A stretch of DNA of 64,000 nucleotides from an uncultured Actinomycetes bacterium (GTDB lineage Bacteria > Actinomycetota > Acidimicrobiia > IMCC26256 > DASPTH01), in NCBI GenBank assembly GCA_963841415.1, contig CAWJCN010000004.1:171470-235469 (forward strand). Reading direction: 5' to 3'. This document shows, one piece after another, positions 816-60,860 of this stretch. Within the stretch, counting starts at the first letter, position 1; the number at the start of each line of letters is the position of its first letter. Position numbers and translations under genes: made by a program. The notes under the pieces were generated by a model, which did no database searches, was not told where the DNA came from, and worked only from the letters and a program-made list of their open reading frames with translations.

Positions 816-863
816 ATACCCTAAGGGGTATACTTAAGATTATTGGAATACCTATAGGGGTAT
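816..863. promoter_or_regulatory. Two tandem CsoR-family operator-like inverted repeats bracketing -10-like hexamers
   Basis: ATACCCTAAGGGGTAT (816-831) and ATACCTATAGGGGTAT (848-863), 32 bp apart. The AT-rich spacer holds TATACT/TAAGAT. Located 42 bp upstream of the trx start, with a DUF156 regulator in the same operon. Confidence 0.5.
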
Positions 864-904
864 ACCAGTTGACTGCTCTGATGCCCGAGCCGGGAGGAGG
901 ACGC

Positions 905-34022: not shown

Positions 34023-34072
34023 CGGTCGATTCCGTTGCGCCGTCTCGCCCTCCGGGCACGGCTCCACTTCAT
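34019..34072 (-). CDS. Candidate relay mini-ORF D (MKWSRARRARRRNGIDR)
   Basis: Its ATG overlaps the ppx stop (AGATGAAG). Its TGA overlaps the downstream ATG 34022 (CGATGAGG). It contains the GGAATCGACC element. Confidence 0.35.
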   Translation of the reverse strand: MKWSRARRARRRNGIDR

Positions 34073-34998: not shown

Positions 34999-35480
34999 AC
35001 CCGTTCCCCGTCGGGCGCGGTCGCGGTCGTGTGCGCCAGTCGTTCGGCCGTCCAGCGGCCCACTGGGTCGTCGGCCCCTGCCAGCAGGTTGGCGTAGTGG
35101 GCGTGCAGGCACTTGACGCCCTCACGGGTGCCGCCCACCCCGCCCGACGGTCGGGGTCCGGTGTGGTCGGGAGCGATGCTCGCGTCGCGCGCGGCCGCGT
35201 ACGCGTCGTGGGCCGACCGCACAGACACCGGATCCACCGCGGCCTGGGCGTCGCGCACGCCGCCGGCGGCTTCCAGGCGGGAGATCCGCAGGTTGAGGTC
35301 GGGATCGACCAGCCAGTACCGGGTGGGCATCGGCGTGCCGGCGCGAGTGAACGGCGCGTTGCACACCACCACCGGGGCACCGGCGACGTCGCGCACCACC
35401 ACCTCGAAGTCGGCTTGCGGCGCGCGCCCGAGCCGGTCGGTGACCGCGGCGACGTCGTCCGCGTGGTGGACGGGCATCAC
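34995..35480 (-). CDS. DUF501 domain protein
   Basis: 161 aa. PTRYWLVDP...GGVGGTREGVKCLHAHYA family core. Same position as the Rv1025 homologue. Confidence 0.8.
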   Translation of the reverse strand: MMPVHHADDVAAVTDRLGRAPQADFEVVVRDVAGAPVVVCNAPFTRAGTPMPTRYWLVDPDLNLRISRLEAAGGVRDAQAAVDPVSVRSAHDAYAAARDASIAPDHTGPRPSGGVGGTREGVKCLHAHYANLLAGADDPVGRWTAERLAHTTATAPDGERV

Positions 35481-35554
35481 TCGGGTCGATTCCGCTCGGG
35501 CGTCCCAGCCGTCCGGCCACGGCTCCGCGTCATCTCCCGCTTGATGTCCATCAC
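35477..35554 (-). CDS. Candidate relay mini-ORF C (VMDIKREMTRSRGRTAGTPERNRPE)
   Basis: Starts 2 codons after the ftsB TAA, in the same frame. Its TGA overlaps the DUF501 GTG/ATG (GAGTGATG). It carries the GGAATCGACC element. Confidence 0.35.
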   Translation of the reverse strand: MMDIKREMTRSRGRTAGTPERNRPE

Positions 35555-35560
35555 CCCAGT

Positions 35561-38554
<2,994 letters not shown>

Positions 38555-41112: not shown

Positions 41113-41685
41113 CTAGCTGCCGACGGGGCAGCCGCTCGGCGGGCAGACGCCATGGCGCCCGCGCCAGCTGCCGTAGCGCGGATTCACGTAGATGTCGGCA
41201 CCGCGCAGCGCCTTGGTGAAGAAGGCCTGCTGCTTCGCCTGCGTCGTCAGCCCCATCGCCTGCACGAGCGCGGTGCCGTCGACCAGGACGTCGATGGCGC
41301 TGGACGGTGCATTCGGATATTGCTTCTCGTACTGCGACCGGAGCTGGTCGCTCGTGGACTTCGGCACGCCGACGTCCTGCCGCGCGGCGGCATCGAGCAG
41401 GAGCTGGGTCTGGATCCGCTGGTTGAGCCAACTCGCCGTGACCGACGACGCGATCGAACCGTCGCTCGGGCTGAGGACCGTACCCTGCTTCTCGAGGTTG
41501 GTGGCGATCGTCTTGCTGCCGGCGAGCCACTCGAGCTCGTCGTCGACGGTGGACTGCGAGACCTGCGTGCCGTTGGCCTTGTAGGCGAAGGCCTGCCCAC
41601 CCGCGGCGACCGCGGCGATGGCCGCACCGACCACGCAGAGGACGGTGACGACAGCGACGGCGACGAGGGCGAGACGACTTCTCAC
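41113..41685 (-). CDS. Membrane-anchored hypothetical protein (SurA N-terminal-domain-like)
   Basis: GTG 41685 gives VRSRLALVAVAVVTVLCVVGAAIAAV (signal/anchor). Conserved position between mfd and mazG. Confidence 0.5.
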   Translation of the reverse strand: MRSRLALVAVAVVTVLCVVGAAIAAVAAGGQAFAYKANGTQVSQSTVDDELEWLAGSKTIATNLEKQGTVLSPSDGSIASSVTASWLNQRIQTQLLLDAAARQDVGVPKSTSDQLRSQYEKQYPNAPSSAIDVLVDGTALVQAMGLTTQAKQQAFFTKALRGADIYVNPRYGSWRGRHGVCPPSGCPVGS

Positions 41686-41750
41686 GTTGGTCGATTCCGT
41701 TCCCGCGTCCCGGCCATCCGGCCACGCCTCCACTGCATCTCGCGGCTCAT
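41682..41750 (-). CDS. Candidate relay mini-ORF B (MSREMQWRRGRMAGTRERNRPT)
   Basis: Its ATG overlaps the mfd stop (CCATGAGC). Its TGA overlaps the downstream GTG (ACGTGAGA). It carries the GGAATCGACC element. Confidence 0.4.
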   Translation of the reverse strand: MSREMQWRRGRMAGTRERNRPT

Positions 41751-47543: not shown

Positions 47544-47629
47544 GCCTTCTCCGCTCTTGGCCCTGCGGGCCGGGCCGCTCCGGCCCCGCCTCGCTGCACC
47601 GCAGGATACCTGCGGCGCGGCCGCTCGGC

Positions 47630-49081
47630 TCAGGCTTCTCCGCTCTCGGCCTCATTTTCGAGGTCGTCTTCGTCCCGGGCATCGTCGCGCTTCGCGACCC
47701 AGCCCTCCTCGATCGAGGCCGGCACGCCCTTGGCCAGCGCGCCGGAGGGCACGTCGCGGGTGACGACCGCGCCGGCGCCGGTGTAGGCGCCCTCGCCCAC
47801 CTCGACGGGCGCGACGAGCACGGTGTTGGAGCCCGTGCGCGCGTCGGCGCCGACCTTGGTGCGGTGCTTCTCCCGGCCGTCGTAGTTGGCCGTGATGGTG
47901 CCGGCACCGATGTTGGCGCGGGGTCCGATCTCGGCGTCGCCGACGTACGCGAGGTGCGGCACCTTGGCGTCTTCGCCGATCTCGGAGTTCTTGATCTCGA
48001 CGAACGTGCCGACGTGCGCGCCCGCGGCCAAGCGCGTGCCCGGTCGCAGCGACACGTACGGCCCGACGGTCGCGCCGTCGCCGATCTCCGCCTCGCGGGC
48101 GACGGTCTGGCGGACGACCGCGCCCTCGCCCACCACGGTGTCGACGAGCTGACAGTCAGGACCGATCACCGACCTCGCGCCGACCACGGTGCGGCCCGAG
48201 AGGATGGTGTTGGGCAGGAGGTGCACGTCGGGCGCGAGCCCGACCGCGGCGTCGACGTAGGTGCGCGCCGGGTCGGTCATCCCGACGCCTGCGCGCATCC
48301 AGCGGGTGTTGATCCGGTGGCGGAGCTCGGCCTCGGCTTCGGCGAGCTGGGCACGGTCGTTGACGCCGAACGCGTCGGTCGCGTCGTCCGCCTCGACGCC
48401 GAGCACGAGGTGGCCGGCCTGACGCAGGACGGCGACGACGTCGGTGAGGTAGTACTCGCCCTGCGCGTTCTCGGGGCTGAGCCGGCGCAGCGCGGGCGCG
48501 AGGAGGCCGCGGCGGAAGCAGTAGATCGACGGGTTGACCTCGTCGATCTCGAGCTCGTCGGGGGTGCCGTCGGACTGCTCGACGATGCGGTCGACCCGGC
48601 CCTGGTCGTCGCGCACGACGCGCCCGTACCCGGTGGGATCGGCCACGCGAGCGGTGAGCAACGACGCGGCGGCGTCGGCGTTGCGGTGCGCGGTGGCGAG
48701 CCGGGCCAGCGTCTCGGCCCGCAGGAGCGGCACGTCGCCGGCCACGATGATGAGGTCGTCCTCGACGTCGAGGTCGTCCGCGAATGCGGTGAGTCCGATG
48801 TGTGCGGCGTCGCCGGTGCCCCGTTGCGCGGGCTGCTCCACGAACTCCACCGGCACGTCGCCCACGAGCTGTTCCTGCAGCGTCTTGGTGACGTGCTCGG
48901 CGGCGTGACCGACGACGACCACGATCTTCTGCAGCGGTAGCTGCTCGAGCGCGTCGAGCACGTGCAGGAGCATCGGCCGTCCGCACAGCGGGTGGAGCAC
49001 CTTCGGGGTGGCGGAACGCATGCGCGTGCCCTCGCCTGCCGCCAGAACCACTGCGCTCACCGGCCGGATCTGCGTCGCCAC
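47630..49081 (-). CDS. glmU: Bifunctional UDP-N-acetylglucosamine pyrophosphorylase / GlcN-1-P acetyltransferase
   Basis: VVLAAGEGTRMRS N-terminus and left-handed beta-helix hexapeptide repeats at the C-terminus. GTG start preceded by GGAG. Confidence 0.9.
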   Translation of the reverse strand: MATQIRPVSAVVLAAGEGTRMRSATPKVLHPLCGRPMLLHVLDALEQLPLQKIVVVVGHAAEHVTKTLQEQLVGDVPVEFVEQPAQRGTGDAAHIGLTAFADDLDVEDDLIIVAGDVPLLRAETLARLATAHRNADAAASLLTARVADPTGYGRVVRDDQGRVDRIVEQSDGTPDELEIDEVNPSIYCFRRGLLAPALRRLSPENAQGEYYLTDVVAVLRQAGHLVLGVEADDATDAFGVNDRAQLAEAEAELRHRINTRWMRAGVGMTDPARTYVDAAVGLAPDVHLLPNTILSGRTVVGARSVIGPDCQLVDTVVGEGAVVRQTVAREAEIGDGATVGPYVSLRPGTRLAAGAHVGTFVEIKNSEIGEDAKVPHLAYVGDAEIGPRANIGAGTITANYDGREKHRTKVGADARTGSNTVLVAPVEVGEGAYTGAGAVVTRDVPSGALAKGVPASIEEGWVAKRDDARDEDDLENEAESGEA

Positions 49082-49116
49082 TGATCTCCTACGGGATGTC
49101 TCCCTGTCCGGGGGTG

Positions 49117-49187
49117 CTCGGGGGCGAGGTTTCGAACCTCGACTTGGGACTCCAAAGGACCCCGTGCTGCCGTTACACCACCCCCGA
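49117..49187 (-). tRNA. tRNA-Gln (anticodon UUG)
   Basis: Manual fold: acceptor TCGGGGG/CCCCCGA, D-stem GTGT/GCAC, anticodon loop CTTTGGA (one U-U mismatch in the stem), T-arm CGAGG-TTCGAAA-CCTCG. Confidence 0.8.
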
Positions 49188-49252
49188 ATTGGTCGACACG
49201 ACGGTACCTGATGTGCGGGTCGTCGCCGTGCCCGACTAACTTGCGTCCCGCC

Positions 49253-49354
49253 ATGGGCTCACTGATCAAGAAGCGCCGCAAGCGCATGCGGAAGAAGAAG
49301 CACAAGAAGCTTCTCAAGAAGACGCGCTGGCAGCGCCGTCAGCAGGGCCGCTGA
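49253..49354 (+). CDS. Small basic ribosomal protein bS22-like (33 aa)
   Basis: MGSLIKKRRKRMRKKKHKKLLKKTRWQRRQQGR closely resembles the actinobacterial MGSVIKKRRKRM...KHRKLL bS22 family. Too short for the ORF track. Confidence 0.7.
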   Translation: MGSLIKKRRKRMRKKKHKKLLKKTRWQRRQQGR

Positions 49355-49445
49355 CCGACCTCTCCCCGTTCTGGCGTGCCCGCGCCGTGCATGTCACGGC
49401 GGAGGTACGCAAGAACGACATGGCGAGATGGCCAGATGGGGCGTG

Positions 49446-50339
49446 TCAGCTGGCGAGGCGGACGCCGCGGGAGACGCTGGTCGTGCCGACGACGGGCACG
49501 CGTAGGCGTCGCCTGACCTCCTCGACCAGCCCGGGAAGCCGGCGCGCGTCCGCGACGGGCACCACGTAGGCCGACCCGCTGCCCGCGAGCAGCGCGGGCG
49601 CGCCGGTGGCCGCTTCGAGCGCGGCGCGGAATTCGACCAGGCGCGGCTCGAGCATCTCGGCCGCCGGCTCCAGGTCGTTGACGAGCTCGTCGACCAACGC
49701 CGTCAGCCGGCGCGGCGCCGGCACCATCCGCTCCGACCGCGGGCCGCCCAACCGGTCCCACGCCTTGTAGACGTCCGGAGTCGACAGCCGGAACGGCGGG
49801 ATGGCCACCACGAACGCGAGTCCGGTCGGCACCGACGCCGGCTCGATGATCTCGCCCCGCCCGCGGATCCAGGCTGCGCCGCCCCGCACGCAGAACGGCA
49901 CGTCCGACCCCACCTCGGCCGCGAGGGCGAGGACACCGGCATCGTCGACGTCGACGTCGAGCAGCTCACGCACCGCCAGCAGGGCGGCGGCCGCGTCGGC
50001 CGACCCGCCGCCGAGCCCACCGCCGGCGGGGATGTGCTTGCGCAGCACGAGCCGCACGCCGTGCCCCGACCGTCCCGCGCGCACGAGCAACTTCTCGGCC
50101 GCGATGAAGGCGAGGTTGCGGTGGTCGGACGGCACGTCGTCGCCGAGCTCCACCCCCGAGACCTCCACCTGCACACCACCCGGCGCGGGCACCGCGAAGA
50201 CCTCGATCACGTCGTGCGGCTGACCGAGCGACACCACCAGCGACTCGAGGTCGTGGAACCCGTCACGCCGGCGGCCGAGCACGCGCAGCGACAGGTTGAG
50301 CTTGGGATATGCGGTGGCGCGGACGCGGGCAAGTCTCAT
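49446..50339 (-). CDS. ispE: 4-diphosphocytidyl-2-C-methyl-D-erythritol kinase
   Basis: AYPKLNLSLRVLGRRRDGFHDL and the GHMP motif PAGGGLGGGSADAAA. ATGA overlap with the rsmA stop. Confidence 0.9.
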   Translation of the reverse strand: MRLARVRATAYPKLNLSLRVLGRRRDGFHDLESLVVSLGQPHDVIEVFAVPAPGGVQVEVSGVELGDDVPSDHRNLAFIAAEKLLVRAGRSGHGVRLVLRKHIPAGGGLGGGSADAAAALLAVRELLDVDVDDAGVLALAAEVGSDVPFCVRGGAAWIRGRGEIIEPASVPTGLAFVVAIPPFRLSTPDVYKAWDRLGGPRSERMVPAPRRLTALVDELVNDLEPAAEMLEPRLVEFRAALEAATGAPALLAGSGSAYVVPVADARRLPGLVEEVRRRLRVPVVGTTSVSRGVRLAS

Positions 50340-51186
50340 GCTGCCTCCGCCGCGCTGCGGGCCACCGCGGCCCAGTCGTCGAGACCGAGCGCCTCGGCCC
50401 GTGCGGTCGGGGCGACGCCCGCCGCCGCCAGCACCGCGGGCGTGGCGTCGCCGAGCACCGGCGCGAGCGAACGGCGCAGCATCTTGCGGCGCTGCGCGAA
50501 GCCGGCGCGCACGAGCACGAACAGGTCGTCGGCCGACGGCACGCTCACGGGTGGTTCCGACCGGCGGTGCAGCCGCACGAGCGCCGAGTCGACTTTGGGG
50601 CGCGGGATGAACACGGTCGGCGGGACGAGCCCCACGACCTGCGCCTCCGCGAAGTACGCGACCTTCACCGACACCGCGCCGTACTGCGGGTCGCCGGGGC
50701 CGGCTGCCAACCGCTCCCCCACCTCACGCTGCACCATGACCAGGATGCGCTCGACCGCATCGGCCTCCTCGAGCAACCGGACGACCACCGGCACCGCCAC
50801 GTTGTAGGGCAGGTTCGACACGCACGTACGCGGCGACGGCGGCGGCGCGAGCAGTGCGTCGAGGTCGACGCTCATCGCGTCGCCGGGCTCCACTCGCACG
50901 ACGGCACGGGACCGGCGTCGACCACCACCGCGCGGAGCACGTCGGCCAGCCGGTCGTCGAGCTCCAGCGCCACGACGTCGTGGCCGGCGTCGAGCAGGGC
51001 GAGGGTGAGCGACCCGAGACCGGGGCCGATCTCGAGCACCGGCGCCGCGGCGGGCAACTCGGCCAACGCCACCACCCGGCGGGCGGTGTTCGGGTCGGCG
51101 AGGAAGTTCTGGCCCAGGCTCCGCTTGGGGTGGAGCCCGTGCTGGCCGAGCAGCGCGGTCACCGTCGCCGGGGTCAGGAGAGCCAC
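50336..51186 (-). pseudogene. rsmA: 16S rRNA (adenine1518/1519-N6)-dimethyltransferase RsmA/KsgA, frameshifted as sequenced
   Basis: N-terminal ORF 50872..51186 (KRSLGQNFL, LEIGPGLGSLT) and C-terminal ORF 50336..50899 (SNLPYNVAVP). There is a 1-nt frame change near 50895-50905. Confidence 0.85.
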
Positions 51187-51190
51187 GATG

Positions 51191-51424
51191 ACGGTCGATT
51201 CCGCTCCGGCGTCCCGGCCGTCCGCCGTGATGGTTCGCTCACTGCGAGCCGGGATACCCGGCTCGCAGCCGTTCGCTCACACCCACGCCTCCGCTGCATC
51301 TCCATCACAACGGTCGATTCCACTCCTGCGTCCCGGCCGTCCGCCGCGATGGTTCGCCCACTGCGAGCCGGGATACCCGGCTCGCAGCCGTTCGCTCACA
51401 CCCACGCCTCCGCTGCATCTCCAT
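51191..51424 (-). repeat. Two tandem 115-nt copies (119-bp period, 4 mismatches) of the GGAATCGACC intercistronic element, each with an internal 12-bp-stem hairpin
   Basis: Direct comparison of 51191-51305 with 51310-51424. Hairpin CTGCGAGCCGGG-TAT-CCCGGCTCGCAG is flanked by direct repeats GTGAGCGAAC. Located between the rpfB stop and the rsmA start. Confidence 0.95.
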
Positions 51425-51467
51425 GGGACGAGGAAACTACAAGGTGGGCGTCACCCGTTCCGCACGA

Positions 51468-53084
51468 TCACATGCTCCATTGCGGCCAGTGCAGGACGTT
51501 GTTGGCGCAACCCCACGAGTCGAAGCCGTACTTCGCGTAGATGCGCTCCGCGACGATGATCTGCTCCTCGCGGGTGGCGAGGCCGGCATTCGGCGCGAAC
51601 TCGGTACCGCCGAAGGCTCGCCAGGTGCTCCGGGCGATGCCGAGACCGCCGTCGAAGCCGTTGGCGTTGGAGTCGACGGTGTCCCAGCGCCCGCCCGACT
51701 CGCACTGCGCGAGCTCGTCCCAGTGGGGGTCGGCGTAGGTGCCGTAACCGATGATCTCGGGTGTCGGCGCCACAGTGGGCACCTCCGACACGACCTGCTT
51801 GTCACCCTTCTCGCCGTTCTCGACCCGTTGGCGGTAGGTGATGGTCATGGTGCCGTTCCGACCGTCCTGGATGACGCGGGTCTGGCCGATGGCGAGCGTG
51901 GGGTCGGCCTGTTGCACGGTGTCGAACAGGATCGGCTCGGGGCTCGAGGTGGTGACGGCGTTGACGCGCACGACCGCCACCGAGTCCCCGTCGTGCAGCA
52001 CGGTGTCGGGTGAGGGGATCGCGTAGTCGTCGCCGACGAGCTTCACCTTGTACGACTGGAGCAGCTCGTCGACGGTGCGCGACGGCGAGTCGAACGTGAC
52101 CATCTGGTTGTCGATCTTGAGCGAACCGGCGACGCGCGTGCGGAACACAACGGTCGCGCCCGCCGCGAGCCGGCCGGGATCGTTGCGGACGGCGGTGAGC
52201 TTCCCGAGCTTCAGCTGCTTCTCGAGCTTGTCGGCGCTCGTCTCGACGGTGGGGACGGTGCGGATGCGACCGTCGACGTCGACGGTGACCGGGAACGCGC
52301 GCAACACGTCGACGTGCAGTCCGTCGTGGAGCGAGCTCGTCGCGCTGGGGACGACGACGTCGCCCGGACCGAGGTGCACGCGCTCGGCCGCGAGCAACGC
52401 GCCGACGGAGGAGGCTTCCGAGCGCAAGGGGGTGCGGGTCCCGTCGACGACGAGGGTGATCTCGGACCCGGCCGGTTGCATCGCCCGCTGCGCGATCCAG
52501 GCGCCGCCCAGGGCGGTGAGCACCACGAGCACGGCGACGACGAGCACCCGGGGCGCGGGCAGGAACCGGTGCCGGCGGCGGGGACGGGGAGTGCTGCCCG
52601 GCGGCGGGCCCTCCTCGAGCAGCTCGGTGACCGGGGGGAGCTCCTCCGGGCTGGGCAGCGGGAGCCACGAGGCGGGCTCGGGGGCTTCGGCCCGGGCCGG
52701 AGAGGGCGCGGAGCTCGCTTCGGCCGCGGCCTGGGCGTCTGCCACCACCGCTTCCGCCTCGGCCACCACCGCGGCCTGGTGTTCGGGGTGGGGATCGAGG
52801 AGGGCGTGGAGGGGAGGGAGGCCGTCGAGGTCGGCGGGCAGCGGGAGCCAGGCGGCCGCGTCGTGCGGCTCCGCACGCGCCGGTGACGGTGACACCGCCG
52901 CCTCGATCGCGGCCTCGATCGCGGTGAGGTCGATCACGTCGGGCTCGACCACGATCTCGCTCGCGTCGTCGAGCAGCACCTGGATCGACGGCAACGCGCT
53001 CGGGTCGGGCACGGGCAGCCACGCGGTGGCGTCGTGCGGTTCCGCGCGCGCGGGTGACGGACCGATCTTGCGCGAGACGTGCAA
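51468..53084 (-). CDS. rpfB: RpfB-like resuscitation-promoting factor (3x DUF348, G5, Rpf transglycosylase domain) with a long repeat-containing N-terminal extension
   Basis: C-terminus WDELAQCESGGRW...GGLGIARSTW. G5 segment QTRVIQDGRNGTMTITY. TM helix VLVVAVLVVLTALGGAWIA. The start is uncertain (TTG 53084/53090); codons upstream to 53267 have low GC3. Confidence 0.8.
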   Translation of the reverse strand: MHVSRKIGPSPARAEPHDATAWLPVPDPSALPSIQVLLDDASEIVVEPDVIDLTAIEAAIEAAVSPSPARAEPHDAAAWLPLPADLDGLPPLHALLDPHPEHQAAVVAEAEAVVADAQAAAEASSAPSPARAEAPEPASWLPLPSPEELPPVTELLEEGPPPGSTPRPRRRHRFLPAPRVLVVAVLVVLTALGGAWIAQRAMQPAGSEITLVVDGTRTPLRSEASSVGALLAAERVHLGPGDVVVPSATSSLHDGLHVDVLRAFPVTVDVDGRIRTVPTVETSADKLEKQLKLGKLTAVRNDPGRLAAGATVVFRTRVAGSLKIDNQMVTFDSPSRTVDELLQSYKVKLVGDDYAIPSPDTVLHDGDSVAVVRVNAVTTSSPEPILFDTVQQADPTLAIGQTRVIQDGRNGTMTITYRQRVENGEKGDKQVVSEVPTVAPTPEIIGYGTYADPHWDELAQCESGGRWDTVDSNANGFDGGLGIARSTWRAFGGTEFAPNAGLATREEQIIVAERIYAKYGFDSWGCANNVLHWPQWSM

Positions 53085-53308
53085 CGGCAACGTCGAGCGT
53101 CCTCGTACTGGATCGCTCCCGGCCGCGCTACGGCCGGGAGGGCTTTGCAGTTGCTCGGTGATCGGGACGCCCCTTGCATCGGCGTTGGTTCTGCGCGTCG
53201 ACCGAGAAGCGCTTCCACCCGCTTCGGACGAAGTGATCACGGTAGTCAACCTCCCCCGGTGCGGCAACGATCGTCGCCCGCCGGCCCGGATCGGTGCAGG
53301 TCAGCAGG

Positions 53309-54091
53309 TCAGGAGGGGTCGGCAGGGTGCCCGAACACCGCCGCCGCGTTGGCGCGGGTCGCCGCCGCGACATCGCCCACCGGACAGCCCCTCGCCGCCG
53401 CGAGGGCGGCGCCGACCTCCACGACCCACGCCGGACGGTTGGGTCGGCCGCGGTGCGGCACCGGCGCGAGGAAGGGCGTGTCGGTCTCGACGAGGACGCG
53501 GTCGAGCGGCACCATCATGGCCGCGGCGCGCACGTCGTCGGCGTTCTTGAAGCTCACGATGCCGCTGAACGACACGTACGCGCCGAGATCCAGCGCGCGC
53601 CGCGCCTCGGTGGGTCCGCCGGTGAAGCAGTGGAAGACGGTCCGCGCGGGCACACCGACGTCGGCGAGCACCGCGAAGGTGTCGTCCCACGCGTCGCGGG
53701 AGTGGATCACGAGCGCGCGGTCGAGCTCCCGGGCGAGTTGCACCTGCGCCCGGAACGCGACCTCCTGGTCGTCGCGCGCCGAGTGCTCGTAGTAGAGGTC
53801 GAACCCGCTCTCGCCGATCCCGGCCACCACGTCGGCGTGGTCGCGGGCCAGGGCGGTGAGCTCGGCCCACTGCTCGTCGAGGTGGGAGGCGTCGTGGGGA
53901 TGCAGCCCGACGGTGGCCCGCACCTCCGGGTGCTCGTGCGCCAGCTCGACCGCCCGCCGGGAGCTCGCCAGGTCGGTGCCGACGCAGATCAGGGCGTCGA
54001 CGCCCGCCCCGACCGCTTCCCGGACCTGGGTGGCGGGGTCCTCGTCGGTGCCCTGGTAGCCCAGGTGGCAGTGGCTGTCGACCCAGGTCAA
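53309..54091 (-). CDS. tatD: TatD-family metal-dependent deoxyribonuclease/hydrolase
   Basis: TTG start. WVDSHCHL N-terminus, VLVETDTPFLAPVPHRG near the C-terminus. Confidence 0.85.
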   Translation of the reverse strand: MTWVDSHCHLGYQGTDEDPATQVREAVGAGVDALICVGTDLASSRRAVELAHEHPEVRATVGLHPHDASHLDEQWAELTALARDHADVVAGIGESGFDLYYEHSARDDQEVAFRAQVQLARELDRALVIHSRDAWDDTFAVLADVGVPARTVFHCFTGGPTEARRALDLGAYVSFSGIVSFKNADDVRAAAMMVPLDRVLVETDTPFLAPVPHRGRPNRPAWVVEVGAALAAARGCPVGDVAAATRANAAAVFGHPADPS

Positions 54092-54175
54092 CTGGCGCTC
54101 ACGCTCACGCGTCCACCATTGGGCGCTCGCTGCTCGCCGGTCCGCCCTGCTCGAGGACGCCCGGCTCGCTCACGC

Positions 54176-55702
54176 TCACGCCTCGGTCTCGATCCGGGGG
54201 AACAGCGGGTCGCCCTTCTCCAGCGGTGATCCCGCGGGCAAGCCGCCCCACGCGGCCGCCTCCGGGAGCCGCTGCTCCTCCGGCGGGCCGGGCAGGCCGA
54301 GACGCCGCCAGAGCTCGCCCGCGGCGCGCGGGATCAGCGGCGACGCGAGCAGCGCGACGACGCGCAGCGCCTCGAGGCAGTCGCCGAGCACCGCGGCGAC
54401 CGCGGCGGTGTCGCCCACCTTGTTGAGCGCCCACGGCTGCTGTTCCTCGATGTACGCGTTGGTGTGACGGATCAGCTCCCAGACCGCGCCGAACCCACCC
54501 GCGTAGTCGAGCTCCTCCATGCGCGCGGTGAGGGTGCCGAACGCGGTGGCCGCCTGCTCGACGAGTGGACCGTCGGCGCGCGAGTCGGGCACCACCCCGC
54601 CGCAGTAGCTCACCGCCATGTTGAGGACGCGGTTGGCGAGGTTGCCGAAGTTGTTGGCGAGGTCGGCGTTGTAGCGCGCGACCATCGCCTCGTAGCTGAA
54701 GTCGCCGTCGGGTCCGAAGCGCTGGTCGGCGAGGAAGTGGTAGCGGAACCCGTCGACCCCGAACTCGGCGACGAGGTCGGCGGGCGCGATCTGGTTCGCC
54801 TTCGTCTTGCTCATCTTGTCGCCACCGACGAGCAGGTACCCGTGCGCGAAGACCGTCTTCGGCGGTGCCTCCCCTGCGGCCATCAGCATGGCGGGCCAGT
54901 ACGCCGCATGTTGGCGGAGGATGTCCTTGCCGATGAGGTGGTAGTCGGCCGGCCAGAAGCGGTCGAAGCGGGCGCGGTCGTCGGGATACCCCACCGCGGT
55001 GCAGTAGTTGATCAGCGCGTCGAACCACACGTAGGCGACGTGGGACTGGTCCCACGGCAGCGGGATGCCCCACGAGATCGACGTGCGGCTGATCGAGAAG
55101 TCGAGCAGGCCCTGCTTGATCAGGCCGAGCACCTCGTTGCGTTTTCCGGCGGGCTGCACCGCCTCCGGGTGCTCGGTGTAGTGCGCGAGGAGGCGGTCCT
55201 CGTAGCGCGAGAGGCGGAAGAAGTAGTTCTCCTCGGTGACGTGCTCGACGACCGTGCCGTGGATCGGGCAGCGTTGGCCGTCGTCGAGCTCGTCCTCCTT
55301 GTAGTAGAGCTCGCAGCCGACGCAGTAGAGGCCCTCGTAGCTGTCGAGCTCGATGTCGCCGGAGTCGTAGACCCGCAGGAGGAACTCCTGCACCGCCCGC
55401 TTGTGACGGGCCTCGGTGGTGCGGATGTAGTCGTCGTAGGTGATGTCGAGGTCGTCCCACGCGGCACGGAAGAGCGCGCTGTTGCGGTCGGCCCACGCGA
55501 GCGGCTCGACTCCGTGGGCCTCGGCCGCCCGCTGGATCTTGAGGCCGTGCTCGTCGGTGCCGGTGAGGAACACCACGTCGTCGCCCCACAGCCGGCGCCA
55601 ACGGGCCAGGACGTCGGCCGCGAGCGTCGTGTACGCGTGCCCGATGTGGGGCGCGTCGTTGACGTAGTAGATCGGCGTGGTGACGTAGAAGGGCTCCGAC
55701 AT
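54176..55702 (-). CDS. metG: Methionine--tRNA ligase
   Basis: TTPIYYVNDAPHIGHAYT (HIGH) and KMSKTK (KMSKS) motifs. The remainder of ORF 54176..56623 is the alternative frame of rsmI. Confidence 0.9.
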   Translation of the reverse strand: MSEPFYVTTPIYYVNDAPHIGHAYTTLAADVLARWRRLWGDDVVFLTGTDEHGLKIQRAAEAHGVEPLAWADRNSALFRAAWDDLDITYDDYIRTTEARHKRAVQEFLLRVYDSGDIELDSYEGLYCVGCELYYKEDELDDGQRCPIHGTVVEHVTEENYFFRLSRYEDRLLAHYTEHPEAVQPAGKRNEVLGLIKQGLLDFSISRTSISWGIPLPWDQSHVAYVWFDALINYCTAVGYPDDRARFDRFWPADYHLIGKDILRQHAAYWPAMLMAAGEAPPKTVFAHGYLLVGGDKMSKTKANQIAPADLVAEFGVDGFRYHFLADQRFGPDGDFSYEAMVARYNADLANNFGNLANRVLNMAVSYCGGVVPDSRADGPLVEQAATAFGTLTARMEELDYAGGFGAVWELIRHTNAYIEEQQPWALNKVGDTAAVAAVLGDCLEALRVVALLASPLIPRAAGELWRRLGLPGPPEEQRLPEAAAWGGLPAGSPLEKGDPLFPRIETEA

Positions 55703-55757
55703 GGTGAGCACCACCCTATTTCCGAACTGGCGTCGCTCAACCCACCTATCACCCCAC

Positions 55758-56630
55758 CTATAACCCCGGCGAACGACGCCGGTTCGCTTGCTTGAGGCGC
55801 GTGGCGGCGTCGTAGGTGCGGCGACGGGGGACGCCGAGGTCGCGCGCGACCCGGGCCGCGGCGTCGCGCGTCGACAGGCCCTCGCCGAGCGCGGCGGTGA
55901 CGTGGGCGTCGATCTCCGCGTCGCTGGCCTCGGGCGGCGGCGGTGCGGGCGCGACCACGATGACGTGCTCCCCGCGCGGCTCTCCGAGCTCGACGTGCCC
56001 GACCGCCTCGTCCAGCGTCCCGCGCCACACCTCCTGGTGCAGCTTGGTGAGCTCGCGGGCGACGGCCACCTCCCGCAACGGTCCGCACGCGCCCAGCAAC
56101 TGGGTGAGCGTGCCGTGCACCCTCCGGGGCGACTCGTAGAGCACGACGGTGCGGATCTCGGGCACGAGCCCGGCGATGCGGTCGCGGCGTTCGACGCCGC
56201 GCCGGGGCAGGAACCCCTCGAAGACGAAGCGGTCGGTCGGGAACCCGGAGAGCACGAGCGCCATGAGCACCGCGCTCGGACCTGGGACCACGTCGACGGC
56301 AAGCCCCGCGTCGACGCACGCCCGCACGAGACGCTCGCCCGGATCGGAGATGCCCGGCATCCCGGCGTCGGTGACGTACGCGACACATCGTCCGTCGCGC
56401 ACCGCGTCCACGACCCAGTCGGCGCTCTGCTGCTCGTTGTGCGCGTGCACCGAGCGCAGGCGCCCGGCCGCGGGCACGCCGAGGTGGCTGAGCAGGGCCC
56501 GGGTCCGGCGCGTGTCTTCCGCCGCGATGACGTCGGCGTCGCGCAGCGCCTCCACGACTCGTGTCGACACGTCACCGAGGTTGCCGATCGGCGTCCCGAC
56601 CAGCACCAACACACCAGGATCATCGGTCAC
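55758..56630 (-). CDS. rsmI: 16S rRNA (cytidine1402-2'-O)-methyltransferase
   Basis: LVLVGTPIGNLGDVS..., DAGMPGISDPG motifs. GTG start. Confidence 0.9.
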   Translation of the reverse strand: MTDDPGVLVLVGTPIGNLGDVSTRVVEALRDADVIAAEDTRRTRALLSHLGVPAAGRLRSVHAHNEQQSADWVVDAVRDGRCVAYVTDAGMPGISDPGERLVRACVDAGLAVDVVPGPSAVLMALVLSGFPTDRFVFEGFLPRRGVERRDRIAGLVPEIRTVVLYESPRRVHGTLTQLLGACGPLREVAVARELTKLHQEVWRGTLDEAVGHVELGEPRGEHVIVVAPAPPPPEASDAEIDAHVTAALGEGLSTRDAAARVARDLGVPRRRTYDAATRLKQANRRRSPGL

Positions 56631-56719
56631 GCTTTCCCGCTCTCGGTGCTGCGCACCGGGCCGCTCGGGCCCCGCTCCGTTGCTCGCCGGGATACCCGGC
56701 TCGCGGACACTTCGCTCAT
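56627..56719 (-). CDS. Candidate relay mini-ORF E (MSEVSASRVSRRATERGPSGPVRSTESGKA)
   Basis: Its ATG overlaps the DUF192 stop (GCATGAGC). Its TGA overlaps the rsmI GTG (GCGTGACC). It contains the GG-TAT-CC hairpin and the GAGAGCGGGAAAGC 3' motif. Confidence 0.4.
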   Translation of the reverse strand: MSEVSASRVSRRATERGPSGPVRSTESGKA

Positions 56720-57045
56720 GCGCGGAGCTCCACCCGGTCGCCGGGCACGAGCCGCCACCGGTCGAACGCGCCGGATTCGGCTTCGATCACGAACACGGCC
56801 CGCCGCACGTACGGCGACACCCGCCACGGGGCGAGGTTGGTCGTGCGGACCACGACACCCTCGGCGTCGCAGAACGCCACGTCGATGGCGAAGCGCATCC
56901 CCGCGGTGTGCACGTTGCGGCACGGCCGCAGGACGAGCGCGCCGTCGAACGAGTCGCGGTGCAGCAGCCCGCGGCGACGAGCGCGCGCCGAATCGGCGAG
57001 CTCGGCTGCTGCCAGCACATCACCGTCGCGTACGAGCCAGGGCAT
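56716..57045 (-). CDS. DUF192 domain protein
   Basis: 109 aa. RRRGLLHRDSFDGALVL...VHTAGMRFAIDVAF family pattern. Confidence 0.75.
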   Translation of the reverse strand: MPWLVRDGDVLAAAELADSARARRRGLLHRDSFDGALVLRPCRNVHTAGMRFAIDVAFCDAEGVVVRTTNLAPWRVSPYVRRAVFVIEAESGAFDRWRLVPGDRVELRA

Positions 57046-57061
57046 CGCTCCCGAAACTCCG

Positions 57062-58126
57062 TCACACGTTGAAGCGGATCTCGAGCACGTCGCCGTCGAC
57101 GACCTCGTACTCCTTGCCCTCCACGCGCAGCTTTCCCTGCTCCTTGGCCTTGGTCCACGAGCCGATGTCGAGGAGCTCCGCCCAGTGGATCACCTCGGCT
57201 CGGATGAAGCCGCGCTGGAGGTCGGAGTGGATCACGCCGGCGCACTCCGGTGCCTTCGCGCCCGCCCGGAAGGTCCATGCCCGCGACTCGGTGTCGCCGG
57301 TGGTGAGGAACGTGCGCCGACCGAGGAGGTGGTAGGCGGCGCGCGCCACGCGGGGCACGACGCCCTCGCCGAGCCCGAGACCCTCGAGCAGCTCGGCGCG
57401 CCCCTCGGGGTCGAGCTGCGCCGCCTCGGCTTCGAGCTGCAGGCACACCCCCATCGCCTCGACGCCGTCGGCCACCGGAGCCACGATCTCGTCGACCCGC
57501 TCGAGCTGGTCTTCGCCGATGTTCACCACGACCAGCACCGGCTTCACGGTGAGGAGGAACGCGGGGGCCAGGAGCTCGCGCTCGTCGTCGCCGAGGTCGG
57601 CGCGGTACAGCGGCACGCCGTCGCCGAGCAGTGTCGCCGCCCGTTCGAGCGCAGCGATCTCGCCGGCCAGCGACTTGTCACCTTTCGCCGCCCGCTGCTG
57701 CCGGTGCAGCCGACCCTCGACCGACGCCAGATCGGCGAGCACGAGCTCGAGCTCGAGGGTGTCGAGATCGGCGCGGGGGTCGGTGTCGCCCGGCACCGAC
57801 GGATCCTCGAAGGCCCGCAAGACGTAGAGGACGGCGTCGCAGTCGCGCAACGACCCGAGGAAGCGGTTGCCGAGGCCCTCGCCAGCGCTCGCGCCCTTCA
57901 CCAGCGCCGCGATGTCGACGATCTCGAAGCCGGTGTACACGAGCTTCTTCGAGTTGGACATCTTGCCGAGCAGATCGACGCGCTCGTCCGGGACGTGCGC
58001 GAGCGCGACGGTCGTCTCGGTGGTGGAGAACGGGTGCGTCGCCACGACGGTCGACGCGCCGGTGAGCGCGTTGAACAGGCTCGACTTGCCGCTGTTGGGG
58101 AGACCGACGAGCCCGAGGCGTTCCAT
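57062..58126 (-). CDS. ychF: Redox-regulated ATPase YchF
   Basis: GLVGLPNSGKSSLFNALT P-loop, and a C-terminal TGS-like FIRAEV...VVDGDVLEIRFNV. Confidence 0.9.
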   Translation of the reverse strand: MERLGLVGLPNSGKSSLFNALTGASTVVATHPFSTTETTVALAHVPDERVDLLGKMSNSKKLVYTGFEIVDIAALVKGASAGEGLGNRFLGSLRDCDAVLYVLRAFEDPSVPGDTDPRADLDTLELELVLADLASVEGRLHRQQRAAKGDKSLAGEIAALERAATLLGDGVPLYRADLGDDERELLAPAFLLTVKPVLVVVNIGEDQLERVDEIVAPVADGVEAMGVCLQLEAEAAQLDPEGRAELLEGLGLGEGVVPRVARAAYHLLGRRTFLTTGDTESRAWTFRAGAKAPECAGVIHSDLQRGFIRAEVIHWAELLDIGSWTKAKEQGKLRVEGKEYEVVDGDVLEIRFNV

Positions 58127-58182
58127 GCGGGCGCCAGGCTACCGGCGCCTCCCCGATGGGTCGCTCCTCGGCGACCTTCCGG

Positions 58183-59541
58183 TCAGCAGCTCGCGACCGC
58201 GGCCGCGGCGTCGAGCTTCCCGTACCCGTACAACGTGTCGACCCCGGCGGGCCCCAGGTCGTGCGCCGAGCTCTCGAGTCGTCCCACCACCTGCGCCGCG
58301 GTGTCGGACGGGCAGTGCTGCACCACCAGCGCGGCGGCAGCCGCCACGAACGGCGTGGCCATCGACGTGCCGCTCAGCTGCCCGTAACCAGTCGAGGCGA
58401 CGGTTGTGGGCAGCGTGGAGTTGATCTGGGTGCCTGGCGCGCTGATGCCCGTGGGCGTTCCCGTGCCGCTCCACGCGCGTGACGAGTAGGTGGCGAGCTT
58501 GTAGGGGAGGTCGGCGGGCCACGGCGTCGATGTCGGGCACGACGAGGTGGTGCCCGCCTTGCAGAGCGCCGAGACCGACAACATCTGCGGCGTGCTGTCG
58601 GCGAGCGACGCCGGGAACAGCGGCGTGGCGCACGAGCTGTTTCCGGCCGCGACGGTGATCACCGGGTGGGTGTAGTTGGCGTTGCTCGCGTCCTCGACGT
58701 CGGCGATCGCCTGGATCACGGTCGGGTCGCTCGACTTGCCGCCGAGGCTCATCGTGATGACCTGCGCGTCGCCCTTCGTGATGTCGGCCGCCCAGTAGAT
58801 GCCGGCCGCGACGTCGGAGTAGCTGCCTGCGCCGCTGGTGCCGAGGACCCGCACGGGGATCAGGGTGACGCCGGGCGCGCCACCCTCGACGCCGATGCCG
58901 TTGCCGGCGGTGGCGGCGACGATGCCGGCGACGTGCGTCCCGTGTCCACTCGTCGAGGGATCGGTGGTGTCGGCGGGCGGGTTCGACTTGTCGGACGCCG
59001 ACACGATGTCGGCGCTCGGGCCGGTGAAGTGCCCGGTCAGGTCGGGGTGCGTCGTGTTGATGCCGGTGTCGAGCTCGGCGACTCGCACGCCGGTGCCGGT
59101 GTTGGTGGCAGGCGTTCCCCAGGCGCTGGTGAAACCAGAGTCGGTGAACCCCCACGTGGGCGTCTCGGCCAGGGCCTGCACCTCGCCGTCGGGCGCGAAC
59201 GACGTGACGTCGCCTTGGGCGGCAGCGTCGGCGCGGAACTTCGCGATGTCGGCGGCGGAGCCGACGTTGCGTGTGAGCACCTTCGAGCGGCCGTTGTGCT
59301 CCACCACTGCGACATAGCGGTCTTCGATCTTGCCGTTGTCGTCGTCGCCGCTCGTCGCGGCGGCCGCGGCGGACCCGTCGAGGCCACAGATCTTCGGCAG
59401 GGTCGTGGTGGTCGTCGTCGGAGGAGGGGGCGGTGGGGGCGGCGGCAGACAGGCGGCGGCGACGATCGCCACGCCCGCGACCGCGAGGAACACCAACCAC
59501 CGGCTGCGGACGCCGGTCCGGCCGGTCCGCTCGAGTTGCAC
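58183..59541 (-). CDS. S8-family (subtilisin-like) serine peptidase, probable lipoprotein with a Pro/Thr linker
   Basis: Asp/His/Ser motifs VAELDTGI, GHGTHVAG, GTSMATPFVAAAAA. Signal sequence LVFLAVAGVAIVAAAC. Start is GTG 59541 or ATG 59637. Confidence 0.85.
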   Translation of the reverse strand: MQLERTGRTGVRSRWLVFLAVAGVAIVAAACLPPPPPPPPPTTTTTTLPKICGLDGSAAAAATSGDDDNGKIEDRYVAVVEHNGRSKVLTRNVGSAADIAKFRADAAAQGDVTSFAPDGEVQALAETPTWGFTDSGFTSAWGTPATNTGTGVRVAELDTGINTTHPDLTGHFTGPSADIVSASDKSNPPADTTDPSTSGHGTHVAGIVAATAGNGIGVEGGAPGVTLIPVRVLGTSGAGSYSDVAAGIYWAADITKGDAQVITMSLGGKSSDPTVIQAIADVEDASNANYTHPVITVAAGNSSCATPLFPASLADSTPQMLSVSALCKAGTTSSCPTSTPWPADLPYKLATYSSRAWSGTGTPTGISAPGTQINSTLPTTVASTGYGQLSGTSMATPFVAAAAALVVQHCPSDTAAQVVGRLESSAHDLGPAGVDTLYGYGKLDAAAAVASC

Positions 59542-59657
59542 CTGCTCGTCCTCCGCGTCCTGCCGCCCGCCGGGCGGGAGCCTATCGGGTCGCAGACCGC
59601 TCGTTGCGCGGCGCGACGGCCAATCCACTACATTCATCGGCTCTCACGGAGGATCTC

Positions 59658-59744
59658 ATGAGCAAGAAGACCGCCAAGCGCAAGCTCCGTTCGCGACGGA
59701 ACAAGGCCAACCACGGCAAGCGCCCCAACTCGGGCCGCCGGTAA
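59658..59744 (+). CDS. Small basic protein resembling ribosomal protein bL37 (28 aa)
   Basis: MSKKTAKRKLRSRRNKANHGKRPNSGRR with the KANHGKRPN core recalled from the mycobacterial bL37 family. Strong GGAGGA lies 4 nt upstream. Too short for the ORF track. Confidence 0.65.
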   Translation: MSKKTAKRKLRSRRNKANHGKRPNSGRR

Positions 59745-59933
59745 GCCGCTTCGGCCACCGCGTGAGCACGTGTGGAAGGACCCCCAGCCAACGGCCGGGG
59801 GTCCTCCGCGTGGGGCTGGTCGTGGGGTTGGTCAGCCGGTGAACTGCTTTCACCTGCCCGGCGGGTCCCAGGTTTCCCAAATGCGCGGCCGGCAAAACCT
59901 CGGGCGAGCCCTGGGGATCGGCCACGGAGGGTG

Positions 59934-60737
59934 TCAACCAAGCTGGGGCAATTGTTCGATGAGCACCGTTTGGACGGCGCGTCCGATGCGACCCCGCTCG
60001 TCGTTGAGGACGCTCTCGGCCACGCCGAAGCCGGTGCGCTCGGGGTACGTCGCAGAGTCGAGGCCCACCCACTCGGTGACGGGGAGCCGATGCAACGTCA
60101 CGGTGAGGTCGGGGTTGATGCACGAGTAGCGACCACGGTCGAAGGCCGCCGCGACCCCGTTGCCGAAGTCGCTTGCCGCGGCCACCCGCTGGAACGGGGT
60201 CGGCTCCTCTCCCGCGACGATCGGCACCGCGAGGCGGATCCACATGTCCGTGGGTCCGATCGAACCCATGTCGCCGTTGCCGACCCGGCTGACCTCGACC
60301 GCGTGCCAGAACCCGGTACCGCGCGTCCAGTCCCCCGCAAGCCGCTGCGTCGGGCCCGGAGGTGGCATCGGTCCGGAGGACCCCGCCGCGGGTTCCGTGT
60401 CGAACTCGACCGACTGCTCCCGCAGCCGCAGCAGCGTCGCGCGCACGACCTCGACGTCGCCCGCGAAGAGCGAGCCCTGCACGAGTTGCACCTTCTTCCC
60501 CGGACGGATCGTCGTGCGTTCGATGCGCAGCGGCGCAAGTGGCACCGGGCGCATCAGCTCGAGCGTGTAGCGGGCCGGGAACGTGGCCGTACCGAGCTCG
60601 AAGTCCTCCAGCAGCCCCGCGAGGAGCGCCGAGGGAGCTCCACCGTGTTGCGCGTGAGGGGACCACGGCCCGCGGGCGAGCTCGGTGGGCACAGCGACGT
60701 CACCGTCGACCTCGAAGACGTACTCGGGCTCGCTCAT
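59934..60737 (-). CDS. Thioesterase-family (double hotdog, TesB-like) protein
   Basis: Start taken at ATG 60737 (MSEPEYVFEVDGD...). The family call is from overall pattern only. Confidence 0.6.
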   Translation of the reverse strand: MSEPEYVFEVDGDVAVPTELARGPWSPHAQHGGAPSALLAGLLEDFELGTATFPARYTLELMRPVPLAPLRIERTTIRPGKKVQLVQGSLFAGDVEVVRATLLRLREQSVEFDTEPAAGSSGPMPPPGPTQRLAGDWTRGTGFWHAVEVSRVGNGDMGSIGPTDMWIRLAVPIVAGEEPTPFQRVAAASDFGNGVAAAFDRGRYSCINPDLTVTLHRLPVTEWVGLDSATYPERTGFGVAESVLNDERGRIGRAVQTVLIEQLPQLG

Positions 60738-60787
60738 CCATTCCCGCTCTCGGCGCGGACACGATGGCTCGGGCTCCCCTGCTTCAC
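60734..60787 (-). CDS. Candidate mini-ORF G (VKQGSPSHRVRAESGNG)
   Basis: GTG 60787 to TGA 60734-60736, which overlaps the thioesterase ATG (GGATGAGC). Its 3' part CCGAGAGCGGGAATGG matches the element upstream of rsmI. Confidence 0.3.
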   Translation of the reverse strand: MKQGSPSHRVRAESGNG

Positions 60788-60860
60788 GGCGGGTCAGCGT
60801 ACGCGGGAACCGTGCGGACACCCCGACCGTCGAAAGAGGTCAGCCGACCGCGGAGGGCCC

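Follow-up and report, generated by a model that had tools for sequence, protein, structure and literature searches.

The minus strand of a 64,000-nt stretch from an uncultured Actinomycetes bacterium (Acidimicrobiia; G+C content 70%; the whole stretch is called the window here) carries similar sequences directly in front of rsmI and prs, which raises the question if both genes share a regulatory leader. The original prediction had placed them in one leader family with the sequence upstream of an acyl-CoA thioesterase gene, connected this family to tandem copies before rsmA, and pointed to two rRNA methyltransferases and prs as its targets. Our analysis indicates instead that a dispersed repeat precedes unrelated genes. 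With a probability of roughly 80%, the rsmI and prs leaders represent two subfamilies of a dispersed, often tandem repeat of ~89 nt that is located at gene starts of Acidimicrobiia and resembles the interspersed repetitive units of mycobacteria (MIRUs), and they are not gene-specific regulators. The family has apparently not been described before. Rfam searches in gathering and E-value modes yielded no family for the repeat, just a tRNA and a chance miRNA match, and no mention of the motif strings or of Acidimicrobiia repeats was found in the papers searched.

The copies preceding rsmI and prs

The rsmI copy is an 89-nt unit of type A and of the relay type, which fills the junction between the DUF192 gene and rsmI (56631..56719, minus strand). 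A family profile (a hidden Markov model, HMM) matches it with E=7e-22, and a covariance model (CM) built from the genome set described below scores it with 102.9 bits. The ATG of the unit (56719-56717) overlaps the DUF192 stop codon as ATGA and opens a 30-codon open reading frame (ORF), MSEVSASRVSRRATERGPSGPVRSTESGKA, whose TGA sits in the GTGA of the rsmI start (GTG at 56630). This confirms the two overlaps that had been predicted; the copy is flanked by RTGA repeats (ATGA...GTGA). The minimum free energy fold consists of exactly the three consensus hairpins of the family, all read on the minus strand. Hairpin 1 (GCGAGCCGGG-UAU-CCCGGCGAGC, 56682..56704) has a 6-bp stem followed by tandem G.A/A.G pairs and 2 bp, hairpin 2 is GGGCC-CGAGC-GGCCC (56658..56672) and hairpin 3 is GGUGC-GCA-GCACC (56645..56657). 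A purine-rich, Shine-Dalgarno-like 3' arm, GAGAGCGGGAA (56634..56644, minus strand), ends 3 nt 5' of the rsmI GTG. This 11-mer by itself is not enriched in the window (3 found vs 1.8 expected); the GAGCGG within the arm is nearly invariant across 40 copies. The fold energy of the rsmI copy (z=-0.85) is not unusual for a GC-rich sequence, and since fold energies are non-discriminating at 70-75% G+C, covariation was relied on.

The prs copy, at the glmU/prs junction (47544..47633, minus strand; HMM E=1.5e-12, CM 79.5 bits without indels), is also a type A unit and belongs to a non-relay subfamily that starts on a stop codon. It opens with CTGAGCCGAGCG, which contains the glmU TGA (47632-47630), and 86 nt separate this stop from the prs GTG at 47543. 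Hairpin 1 is present as the variant CGCAGG-UAU-CCUGCG (47596-47618) and is followed by hairpin 2 (47572-47586), hairpin 3 (47559-47571) and the 3' arm AAGAGCGGAGA (47548-47558, all minus strand), which provides a good Shine-Dalgarno-like segment, GGAGAAGG, a few nt 5' of the GTG. Compared with the rsmI unit, this one has 1 additional nt, ends in GTGG and has CTG in place of ATG, so that no relay ORF exists. The loss of the start/stop overlap had been noticed originally, and it is explained by the membership of the prs copy in the non-relay subfamily; many metagenome copies likewise open on a stop codon, with CTGAGGCGAGCG or TAGAGGCGAGG. Directly upstream of the unit, the 3' end of glmU (GCCGAGAGCGGAGAAGCC; 47634..47651, minus strand, 18 nt) imperfectly repeats the 3' arm of the element (GCCAAGAGCGGAGAAGGC). 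In relatives glmU ends with ...GAGAGC-TGA and lacks GGAGAAGCC, and comparable partial 3' arms precede the first unit in three other stretches (L088, L091 and L072).

As predicted, the 86-nt and 89-nt leaders align; over 89 nt the two elements share 74% identity, and within the window nhmmer matches them with E=6.6e-5. They differ by compensatory changes in hairpin 1 (CGCAGG/CCUGCG vs GCCGGG/CCCGGC) and in hairpin 3 (GGCCC/GGGCC vs GGUGC/GCACC). Each of them is closer to foreign copies than to the other: among the matches listed, identity reaches 92% between the rsmI copy and copies in L072 and L088, and 85% between the prs copy and copies in L175 and L143. As closer relatives exist in other genomes, local duplication is excluded as the source of the similarity.

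Dispersal, structure and placement of the family

Genomes (one per species) were scanned with the exact 19-nt core of hairpin 1, GCGAGCCGGGTATCCCGGC, which is identical in the rsmI copy and both rsmA copies. At least 159 matches were obtained in at least 113 genome stretches, nearly all from metagenome-assembled genomes (MAGs) of Acidimicrobiia or uncultured Actinomycetes, and one MAG carries at least 20 copies; a rough estimate from base composition predicts a few tens of chance matches in the whole genome collection. Metagenome contigs scanned with an independent anchor, hairpin 2 plus the 3' arm, yielded at least 120 stretches. An HMM seeded with the rsmI element recovered ~48 near-full units in the genome stretches listed, and the CM 72 in the metagenome stretches listed. 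Many copies are arranged head-to-tail, in tandem arrays of 2-7 units with periods that include 56, 89, 104 and 119 nt. Within the window GGTATCC, the apex of hairpin 1, occurs 7 times (2.4 expected), and four of these sites correspond to the prs and rsmI elements and, as foreseen, the two rsmA elements; the other three, of which two fall within coding sequence and one within an operator-like palindrome, are unrelated. A similarity produced by chance or by recent local duplication would fit the presence of just two clear type A copies in the 64-kb window, 9 kb apart. Given the E-value within the window, the hundreds of copies elsewhere and the closer relatives in other genomes, we regard its probability as negligible, and the outcome named beforehand as speaking against a family, copies restricted to this locus, was not observed.

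The consensus unit starts with a 5' arm ATGAGCG(G/A)AG(T/C)G.CC, in its general form (A/G)TGAGCG.... Then follow hairpin 1 (GCGAGCCGGG-TAT-CCCGGCTCGC, as RNA GCGAGCCGGG-UAU-CCCGGCUCGC) with AACG or AGCG, hairpin 2 ((A)GCG-GGGCC-nGAGC-GGCCC), hairpin 3 (GGyGC-GnA-GCrCC, with a variable 5-bp stem and a GNA loop) and the purine-rich 3' arm GAGAGCGG(G/A).A..C, a few nt before the start codon, after which the ATGAGCG of the next unit or gene begins. The loops UAU, CGAGC and GNA are conserved. Covariation was examined in two samples; hairpin 1 is fixed by the search pattern in the genome sample and hairpin 2 in the metagenome sample. In the genome sample 90% of the cells were paired, and 49 double-change cells were counted, compared to 11.7 in shuffles (0/500 reaching this value) and 2-20 in slid controls. 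Changes on both sides affected three of five pairs of hairpin 2 (e.g. C-G 28 vs G-C 11) and all four pairs tested in hairpin 3. In the CM-derived alignment of the metagenome sample, 93% of the cells were paired and 128 double-change cells stood against 38 in shuffles, with double changes in 8 of 9 pairs of hairpin 1 and 4 of 5 pairs of hairpin 3. All three hairpins covary. Among paralogous repeat copies, covariation demonstrates a constraint on the element and is not evidence of regulation. The suggestion that RNA structure might replace a coding relay stands only in part, as the hairpins covary and the relay is also real for rsmI-type copies. From the stem mismatches (G.U 24 vs A.C 14), no clear preference for RNA over DNA pairing emerges. 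Pairing of CCGC in the 5' arm with GCGG in the 3' arm was considered as a candidate closing helix that would hide the Shine-Dalgarno-like segment; since its two strands hardly vary, it offers no covariation.

Hairpin 1 behaves as a module in its own right. It is present in 56-nt type B and in 55-58-nt type C units, and it is nested in frame inside a unit of the GGAATCGACC family, which gives rise to the 119-nt repeat before rsmA; the rsmI/prs family and the GGAATCGACC family have the 3' motif GAGCGG(A/G)A in common. In the metagenome sample, a module of hairpin 2, hairpin 3 and GAGAGCGG was also observed in quite different 5' contexts (L131, L184 and L151; L130, L149 and L178; L147 and L199) and on contigs of lower G+C content (60-69%). 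From these contexts and contigs, this module may not be limited to the type A unit of Acidimicrobiia and may also belong to other repeat families or taxa.

Between close co-directional ORFs the motif was found in sense orientation in 26 cases and in antisense orientation in 2 (p=3e-6). In most units of the genome sample, a long upstream ORF with high G+C content at third codon positions ends in a TGA inside the initial ATGA or GTGA of the unit, and a 28-30-codon ORF ends in the ATGA or GTGA of a long downstream ORF or of the next unit; a 35-codon relay ORF occurs in a variant with a longer hairpin 3. Roughly one third of the metagenome sample shows the relay arrangement as well. Through small indels close to the 5' arm, the hairpins come to lie in three frames (...ASRVSRLATERGPSGP..., ...PRAGYPGEQRAWPERPG... 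and ...EPGIPASSERGLSGP...), and one motif is translated as ASRVSR, PRAGYPG or EPGIPAS in different copies. Despite these frame changes the total length of relay units stays 3n+2 (89, 86, 83 and 104 nt), as a relay from ATGA to ATGA requires; the 28-35-codon ORF thereby begins at the stop codon of the upstream gene and ends at the start codon of the downstream gene. The same rule holds for all junction-unit lengths (26, 50, 56, 65, 71, 83, 86, 89, 104 and 119 nt), which comprise type B with 56 nt, the tatD unit with 71, the rsmA composite with 119, the GGAATCGACC family with 26, 50, 65 and 71, and the thioesterase insertion with 50; in the window, eight of nine junction elements are 3n+2, the exception being the prs copy. 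The use of three frames at a length of 3n+2 implies that phase and structure are conserved and not the peptide, in line with the original remark that nucleotide-level conservation exceeds peptide-level conservation. A functional micropeptide, MSxVxASRVSRLATERGPSGPxRSxESGxx, might be suspected from the intact ORF of most relay-type copies and from the recognisable peptide of the commonest frame. We consider this highly improbable, as in variants two other frames of these nucleotides are used and yield unrelated peptides, compensatory stem changes alter residues freely and a start codon is missing from about half of the copies.

The genes downstream of 20 other copies are unrelated to each other and encode ABC ATPases, CydB, DUF3090, a DnaJ-domain protein, acyl-CoA dehydrogenases, YebC, transaldolase, ChsH2-like, HpcH aldolase, TauD, RsiG, ProB, F420 ligase, a JAB protein, epimerases and metallo-beta-lactamase. 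Neither an rRNA methyltransferase nor prs was found among the downstream genes of these 20 copies. Entire units form in-frame fusions with the downstream protein in L064 and L065. Two further extensions were observed at the DUF192/rsmI junction of relatives: an unrelated 33-nt in-frame GAGCGA-rich tandem repeat inside the RsmI N-terminus of L118 (9960-10040), and an N-terminal extension of RsmI with a hairpin-3-like GGCCCGCAGGG in L114 (10001-10050). Judging by the L118 repeat, the L114 extension and the L064 and L065 fusions, repeats seem to become absorbed into the N-termini of downstream proteins.

Filled and empty junctions in close relatives

Six syntenic loci (L114-L119), in which RsmI is 80-90% identical and the gene order corresponds to that of the window, were compared. 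From 64 kb down to 45 kb, the minus strand of the window encodes the acyl-CoA thioesterase, an S8 peptidase, ychF, DUF192, rsmI, metG, tatD, rpfB, rsmA, ispE, a tRNA, glmU, prs, rplY and pth. L114 and L116, which come from the same kind of assembly as the window, are full of frameshifts, which also affect the rsmI junction of L116. A type A element is present at the DUF192/rsmI junction in none of the six relatives; a plain GTGA overlap is found in L114, L115 and L117 and a 13-nt gap in L119. At glmU/prs, the genes overlap as TGATG or TAGTG in L114, L115, L116 and L119, and L117 has a 52-nt degenerate remnant. The metG and tatD genes of L115 and L117 simply overlap as GTGA, and this junction holds a 71-nt (3n+2) type-B-like unit in the window (54096..54179, minus strand; E=4.6e-7 to the type B seed). 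This unit is flanked by a 15-nt direct repeat, GCGTGAGCGTGAGCG, its GTGA (54179-54176) overlaps the metG stop, and its hairpin (CCGG.CGUCCU...GGGCGG.CCGG) is longer than and different from that of type B. At the rsmA start an allelic series was observed: the site is empty in L114, L116 and L119, contains shorter units of a related repeat in L117 (26 nt) and L118 (65 nt), and in the window is occupied by two tandem 119-nt (3n+2) composite units (51187..51424, minus strand) made of GGAATCGACC-family arms and a nested hairpin-1 module (type C). The comparison of leaders in relatives that had been proposed thus revealed rsmI, prs and rsmA sites that are largely empty or hold shorter or other units. 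Close relatives do not have the window copies at these positions, which identifies the copies as insertions or expansions specific to the lineage.

These junctions bear directly on the idea of a gene-specific cis-regulatory RNA leader, in which a protein or ligand bound to the GGGUAUCCC hairpin would co-regulate rsmI, rsmA and prs. Its conserved, covarying three-hairpin structure and its position directly 5' of start codons would suit such a leader. A leader of this kind would also be expected to be conserved at orthologs and to serve one functional class, and neither was found: the orthologous rsmI junction is without the element in 6/6 relatives and the prs junction in 4/6, the 20 other downstream genes are functionally unrelated, arrays reach 7 units and Rfam has no match. 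We judge this explanation very unlikely. The combination of two methyltransferases and prs is a coincidence, because the element is absent from the rsmI junction of all six relatives and from the prs junction of four of them.

In front of the thioesterase gene, a lineage-specific insertion of 50 nt (3n+2; 60738..60787, minus strand) extends from the ancestral GTG (60787) to the present ATG (60737). In the orthologs of L117, L118 and L119 the GTG is directly followed by ACC/AGC GAG CCC, and a TAnnnT box lies ~8 nt before the GTG in the three readable orthologs; in the window the ancestral GTG was kept, 50 nt were added and a new ATG AGC GAG CCC start was formed. The predicted 17-codon GTG ORF from 60787, VKQGSPSHRVRAESGNG, which ends in ATGA, is present, and the leader matches the family in its 3' arm only (CCGAGAGCGGGAA + ATGA); membership in the family is unproven. 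As a candidate member it is the best non-member match in the window, yet none of four profile or sequence searches was significant (E=5.9 in a single-sequence nhmmer search, 0.51 with the HMM, 0.26 with an HMM of hairpin-1-less short variants and 0.19 with the CM), and no stable fold was detected (z=0.02). Its two arms (GTGTCCGCG on the 5' side and CCGAGAGCGGGAA on the 3' side) suggest that it is possibly a degenerate or internally deleted copy. In relatives the starts of both thioesterase and rsmA (60788-60830 and 51425-51470 of the window, minus strand) look leaderless, with a TAnnnT-like box ~7-10 nt upstream and without a Shine-Dalgarno sequence. At both genes the repeat adjoins the ancestral start codon on its 3' side, and that codon now starts the relay ORF. 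With the repeat placed just after a leaderless-looking ancestral start, the relay would begin by leaderless initiation.

Further units and repeats were observed in the window. Three intercistronic units measuring 65, 71 and 50 nt (41682-41750, 35476-35551 and 34022-34072, minus strand) belong to the GGAATCGACC family; they are all 3n+2 and form small ORFs with ATGA or GTGA overlaps at the ends that were read, encoding peptides such as MSREMQWRRGRMAGTRERNRPT. The rsmA gene (50336-51186, minus strand) spans 851 nt, which is not a multiple of 3, with Pfam matches in two frames (50872-51186 and 50336-50899) and a 7-nt gap relative to L117 in a variable stretch; the gene is genuinely frameshifted or a pseudogene, or else the assembly contains an indel. 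An A+T-rich intergenic stretch (815-875, minus strand) contains the two palindromes ATACCCCTATAGGTAT and ATACCCCTTAGGGTAT and one unrelated GGTATCC; we take these palindromes to resemble CsoR/RcnR-type operator sites. Tandem Repeats Finder further reported an (AG)19 dinucleotide run (1273-1310) and a 44-nt tandem repeat with 2.4 copies and 78% match (35837-35937).

A possible mechanism and the relation to known elements

The anatomy of the units suggests how operons might accommodate them. Ribosomes that terminate on the upstream gene, or that start at an ancestral leaderless start, would re-initiate on the relay ORF, melt the hairpins while translating, finish translation at the following ATGA and then re-initiate at the start of the actual gene. 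Insertions would be tolerated because ribosomes pass through the relay ORF and re-initiate at the overlapping start, which would leave operon expression almost unchanged. Selection would then act on phase and hairpins and not on the peptide. The prs gene would initiate from the Shine-Dalgarno-like 3' arm of its own element, GGAGAAGG. Most likely, the element requires its hairpins to be propagated or retained, via a putative trans-acting factor.

Several points weigh against this interpretation. We infer the relay mechanism from anatomy, and 34 of 72 metagenome units lack a start codon at their 5' end; with about half of these copies affected, the relay is a property of subfamilies and not of the whole family. 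In the consensus unit all three sense frames are open by inspection, save for the initial TGA, so that in such a GC-rich sequence an open ORF alone is weak evidence. Among hairpin-1 arrays overall, 16/30 have a 3n+2 period, which is a moderate enrichment, and periods of 55, 57, 58 and 88 nt also occur, in subtypes that are not relay-type. The metagenome alignment behind the second covariation count was derived from the CM and is thereby fitted to the structure being tested. Finally, no transposase or other propagation mechanism was identified, and no transposase search was made.

How the units spread and what maintains their hairpins can be read in several ways. A tentative extension of the MIRU-like reading is an active mobile system that targets start codons: a trans-acting protein would recognise the near-invariant GGGUAUCCC hairpin and copy units into RTGA(GCG) start junctions, and the relay ORF and the Shine-Dalgarno-like arm would have evolved as a means of keeping insertions neutral for expression or of tuning coupling. 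We give this reading a probability of about one in four. An RNA function at the level of the host, wherever the repeat is located, appears conceivable, though not likely, and would be compatible with a mobile origin; the element would then act like REP (repetitive extragenic palindromic) sequences, BIMEs (bacterial interspersed mosaic elements) or Correia elements, for example as an intercistronic mRNA stabiliser, an RNase processing site, a ribosome standby or coupling module, or a site for an abundant RNA-binding protein. The sense-strand bias, the covarying hairpins with their conserved loops, a 19-nt core identical over many MAGs and several unit types, and a 3' arm at Shine-Dalgarno distance from the start codon all agree with such a function. 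However, presence and absence vary among close relatives at every junction examined, so that no copy looks essential; moreover, the fold energy is ordinary and the mismatch counts do not clearly favour RNA.

Alternatively, the hairpins might act in DNA, as single-strand recognition sites for a trans-acting HUH/Y1-type transposase similar to the REP-associated tyrosine transposases (RAYTs) or derived from IS200/IS605, and insertion adjacent to a short target, for instance RTGA, would then explain position and strand bias. The elements are hairpin-rich, strand-oriented and, by consensus inspection, free of terminal inverted repeats, short direct repeats RTGA(GCG) flank filled sites, and the hairpin-1 module also occurs alone, nested in another repeat. 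This agrees with a DNA-level process, which we nevertheless rate as rather doubtful: as mentioned, a transposase was neither found nor searched for, the copies are not arranged in inverted pairs as in REPINs (REP doublets forming hairpins), and the exact placement at start codons, together with the Shine-Dalgarno-like arm and the 3n+2 rule, indicates a filter acting on translation, for which a DNA mechanism by itself does not account.

Among known elements, the MIRU-like repeat corresponds best in design to the MIRUs of Mycobacterium. As summarised in PMC3184786 and PMC12548453 (after Supply et al. 1997), these are units of 40-100 bp that occur solo or in tandem with variable copy number, lie inside operons, are co-transcribed in sense orientation and contain G+C-rich internal inverted repeats. 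The ends of their small ORF overlap the stop of one flanking gene and the start of the other (-4 spacing). A comparison of occupied and empty sites revealed short direct repeats, and the units are read as apparently mobile; they are also described there as inserting at start codons, with the -4 coupling minimising the effect on expression. The present family has units of 50-119 nt, with the core counts and arrays of 2-7 units given above, and co-directional sense placement (26 vs 2). Its overlapping small ORF is found in the rsmI copy and most genome-sample copies, not in the prs copy or in about half of the metagenome copies, and its filled sites carry RTGA(GCG) or the 15-nt repeat, next to empty sites in relatives. 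The host in this case belongs to the Acidimicrobiia, judging by the labels of RsmI homologues and of the matching MAGs (Acidimicrobiia or uncultured Actinomycetes), and the likeness described here is one of design. In sequence the MIRU unit presumably is unrelated to the Acidimicrobiia unit, and the family is not counted among the MIRUs proper. Further differences are the three separate covarying hairpins, the modular superfamily (types A, B and C, the GGAATCGACC family and nested composites) and the sizeable non-relay subfamily that starts on a stop codon.

The REP/BIME/REPIN sequences of Enterobacteria and Pseudomonas are likewise short, G+C-rich palindromic repeats with hundreds of copies per genome that are transcribed in operons, and REPs can affect intercistronic mRNA stability (PMC3184786). 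However, a REP consists of one imperfect palindrome of 20-40 nt; REPs usually follow stop codons, in either orientation and frequently as inverted pairs, and they are linked to RAYT transposases and have neither a relay ORF nor start-codon placement; the unit described here has three different hairpins and its arrays run head-to-tail. Miniature inverted-repeat transposable elements do not fit either, since by consensus inspection the 5' arm ATGAGCGGAGTG does not match the reverse-complemented 3' arm, although direct repeats are present. Rickettsia palindromic elements are hairpin-forming repeats inside coding sequences that are translated as part of the host protein. The tolerance of insertions through the keeping of reading frames, and the in-frame fusions of L064 and L065, resemble these elements, whereas the Acidimicrobiia elements are separate ORFs between cistrons. 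Leader ORFs coupled by termination-reinitiation, a process reviewed for overlapping cistrons in PMC12548453, are also short and apparently just deliver ribosomes via ATGA or GTGA. Ordinary leader ORFs are single, gene-specific and vertically conserved, in contrast to the multi-copy, variable units with conserved hairpins found here.

Taken together, these results remove the tempting reading of a shared regulatory leader of ribosome-related genes. The MIRU design, a short repeat at start codons with a phase-preserving pass-through ORF, is not confined to mycobacteria; it recurs as a large, diverse and structured superfamily in Acidimicrobiia, an under-studied class that is represented here almost entirely by MAGs from soil and sediment. 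For the annotation of such MAGs, the units will yield spurious small ORFs, wrong start calls and N-terminal extensions, and they are likely hot spots of assembly errors. With hundreds of diverged copies, modular subtypes and filled and empty sites, the superfamily provides good material on the spread of such repeats and their tolerance by operons. If the units do form an active mobile system, they would be the first tractable comparative system for how MIRU-like elements move.

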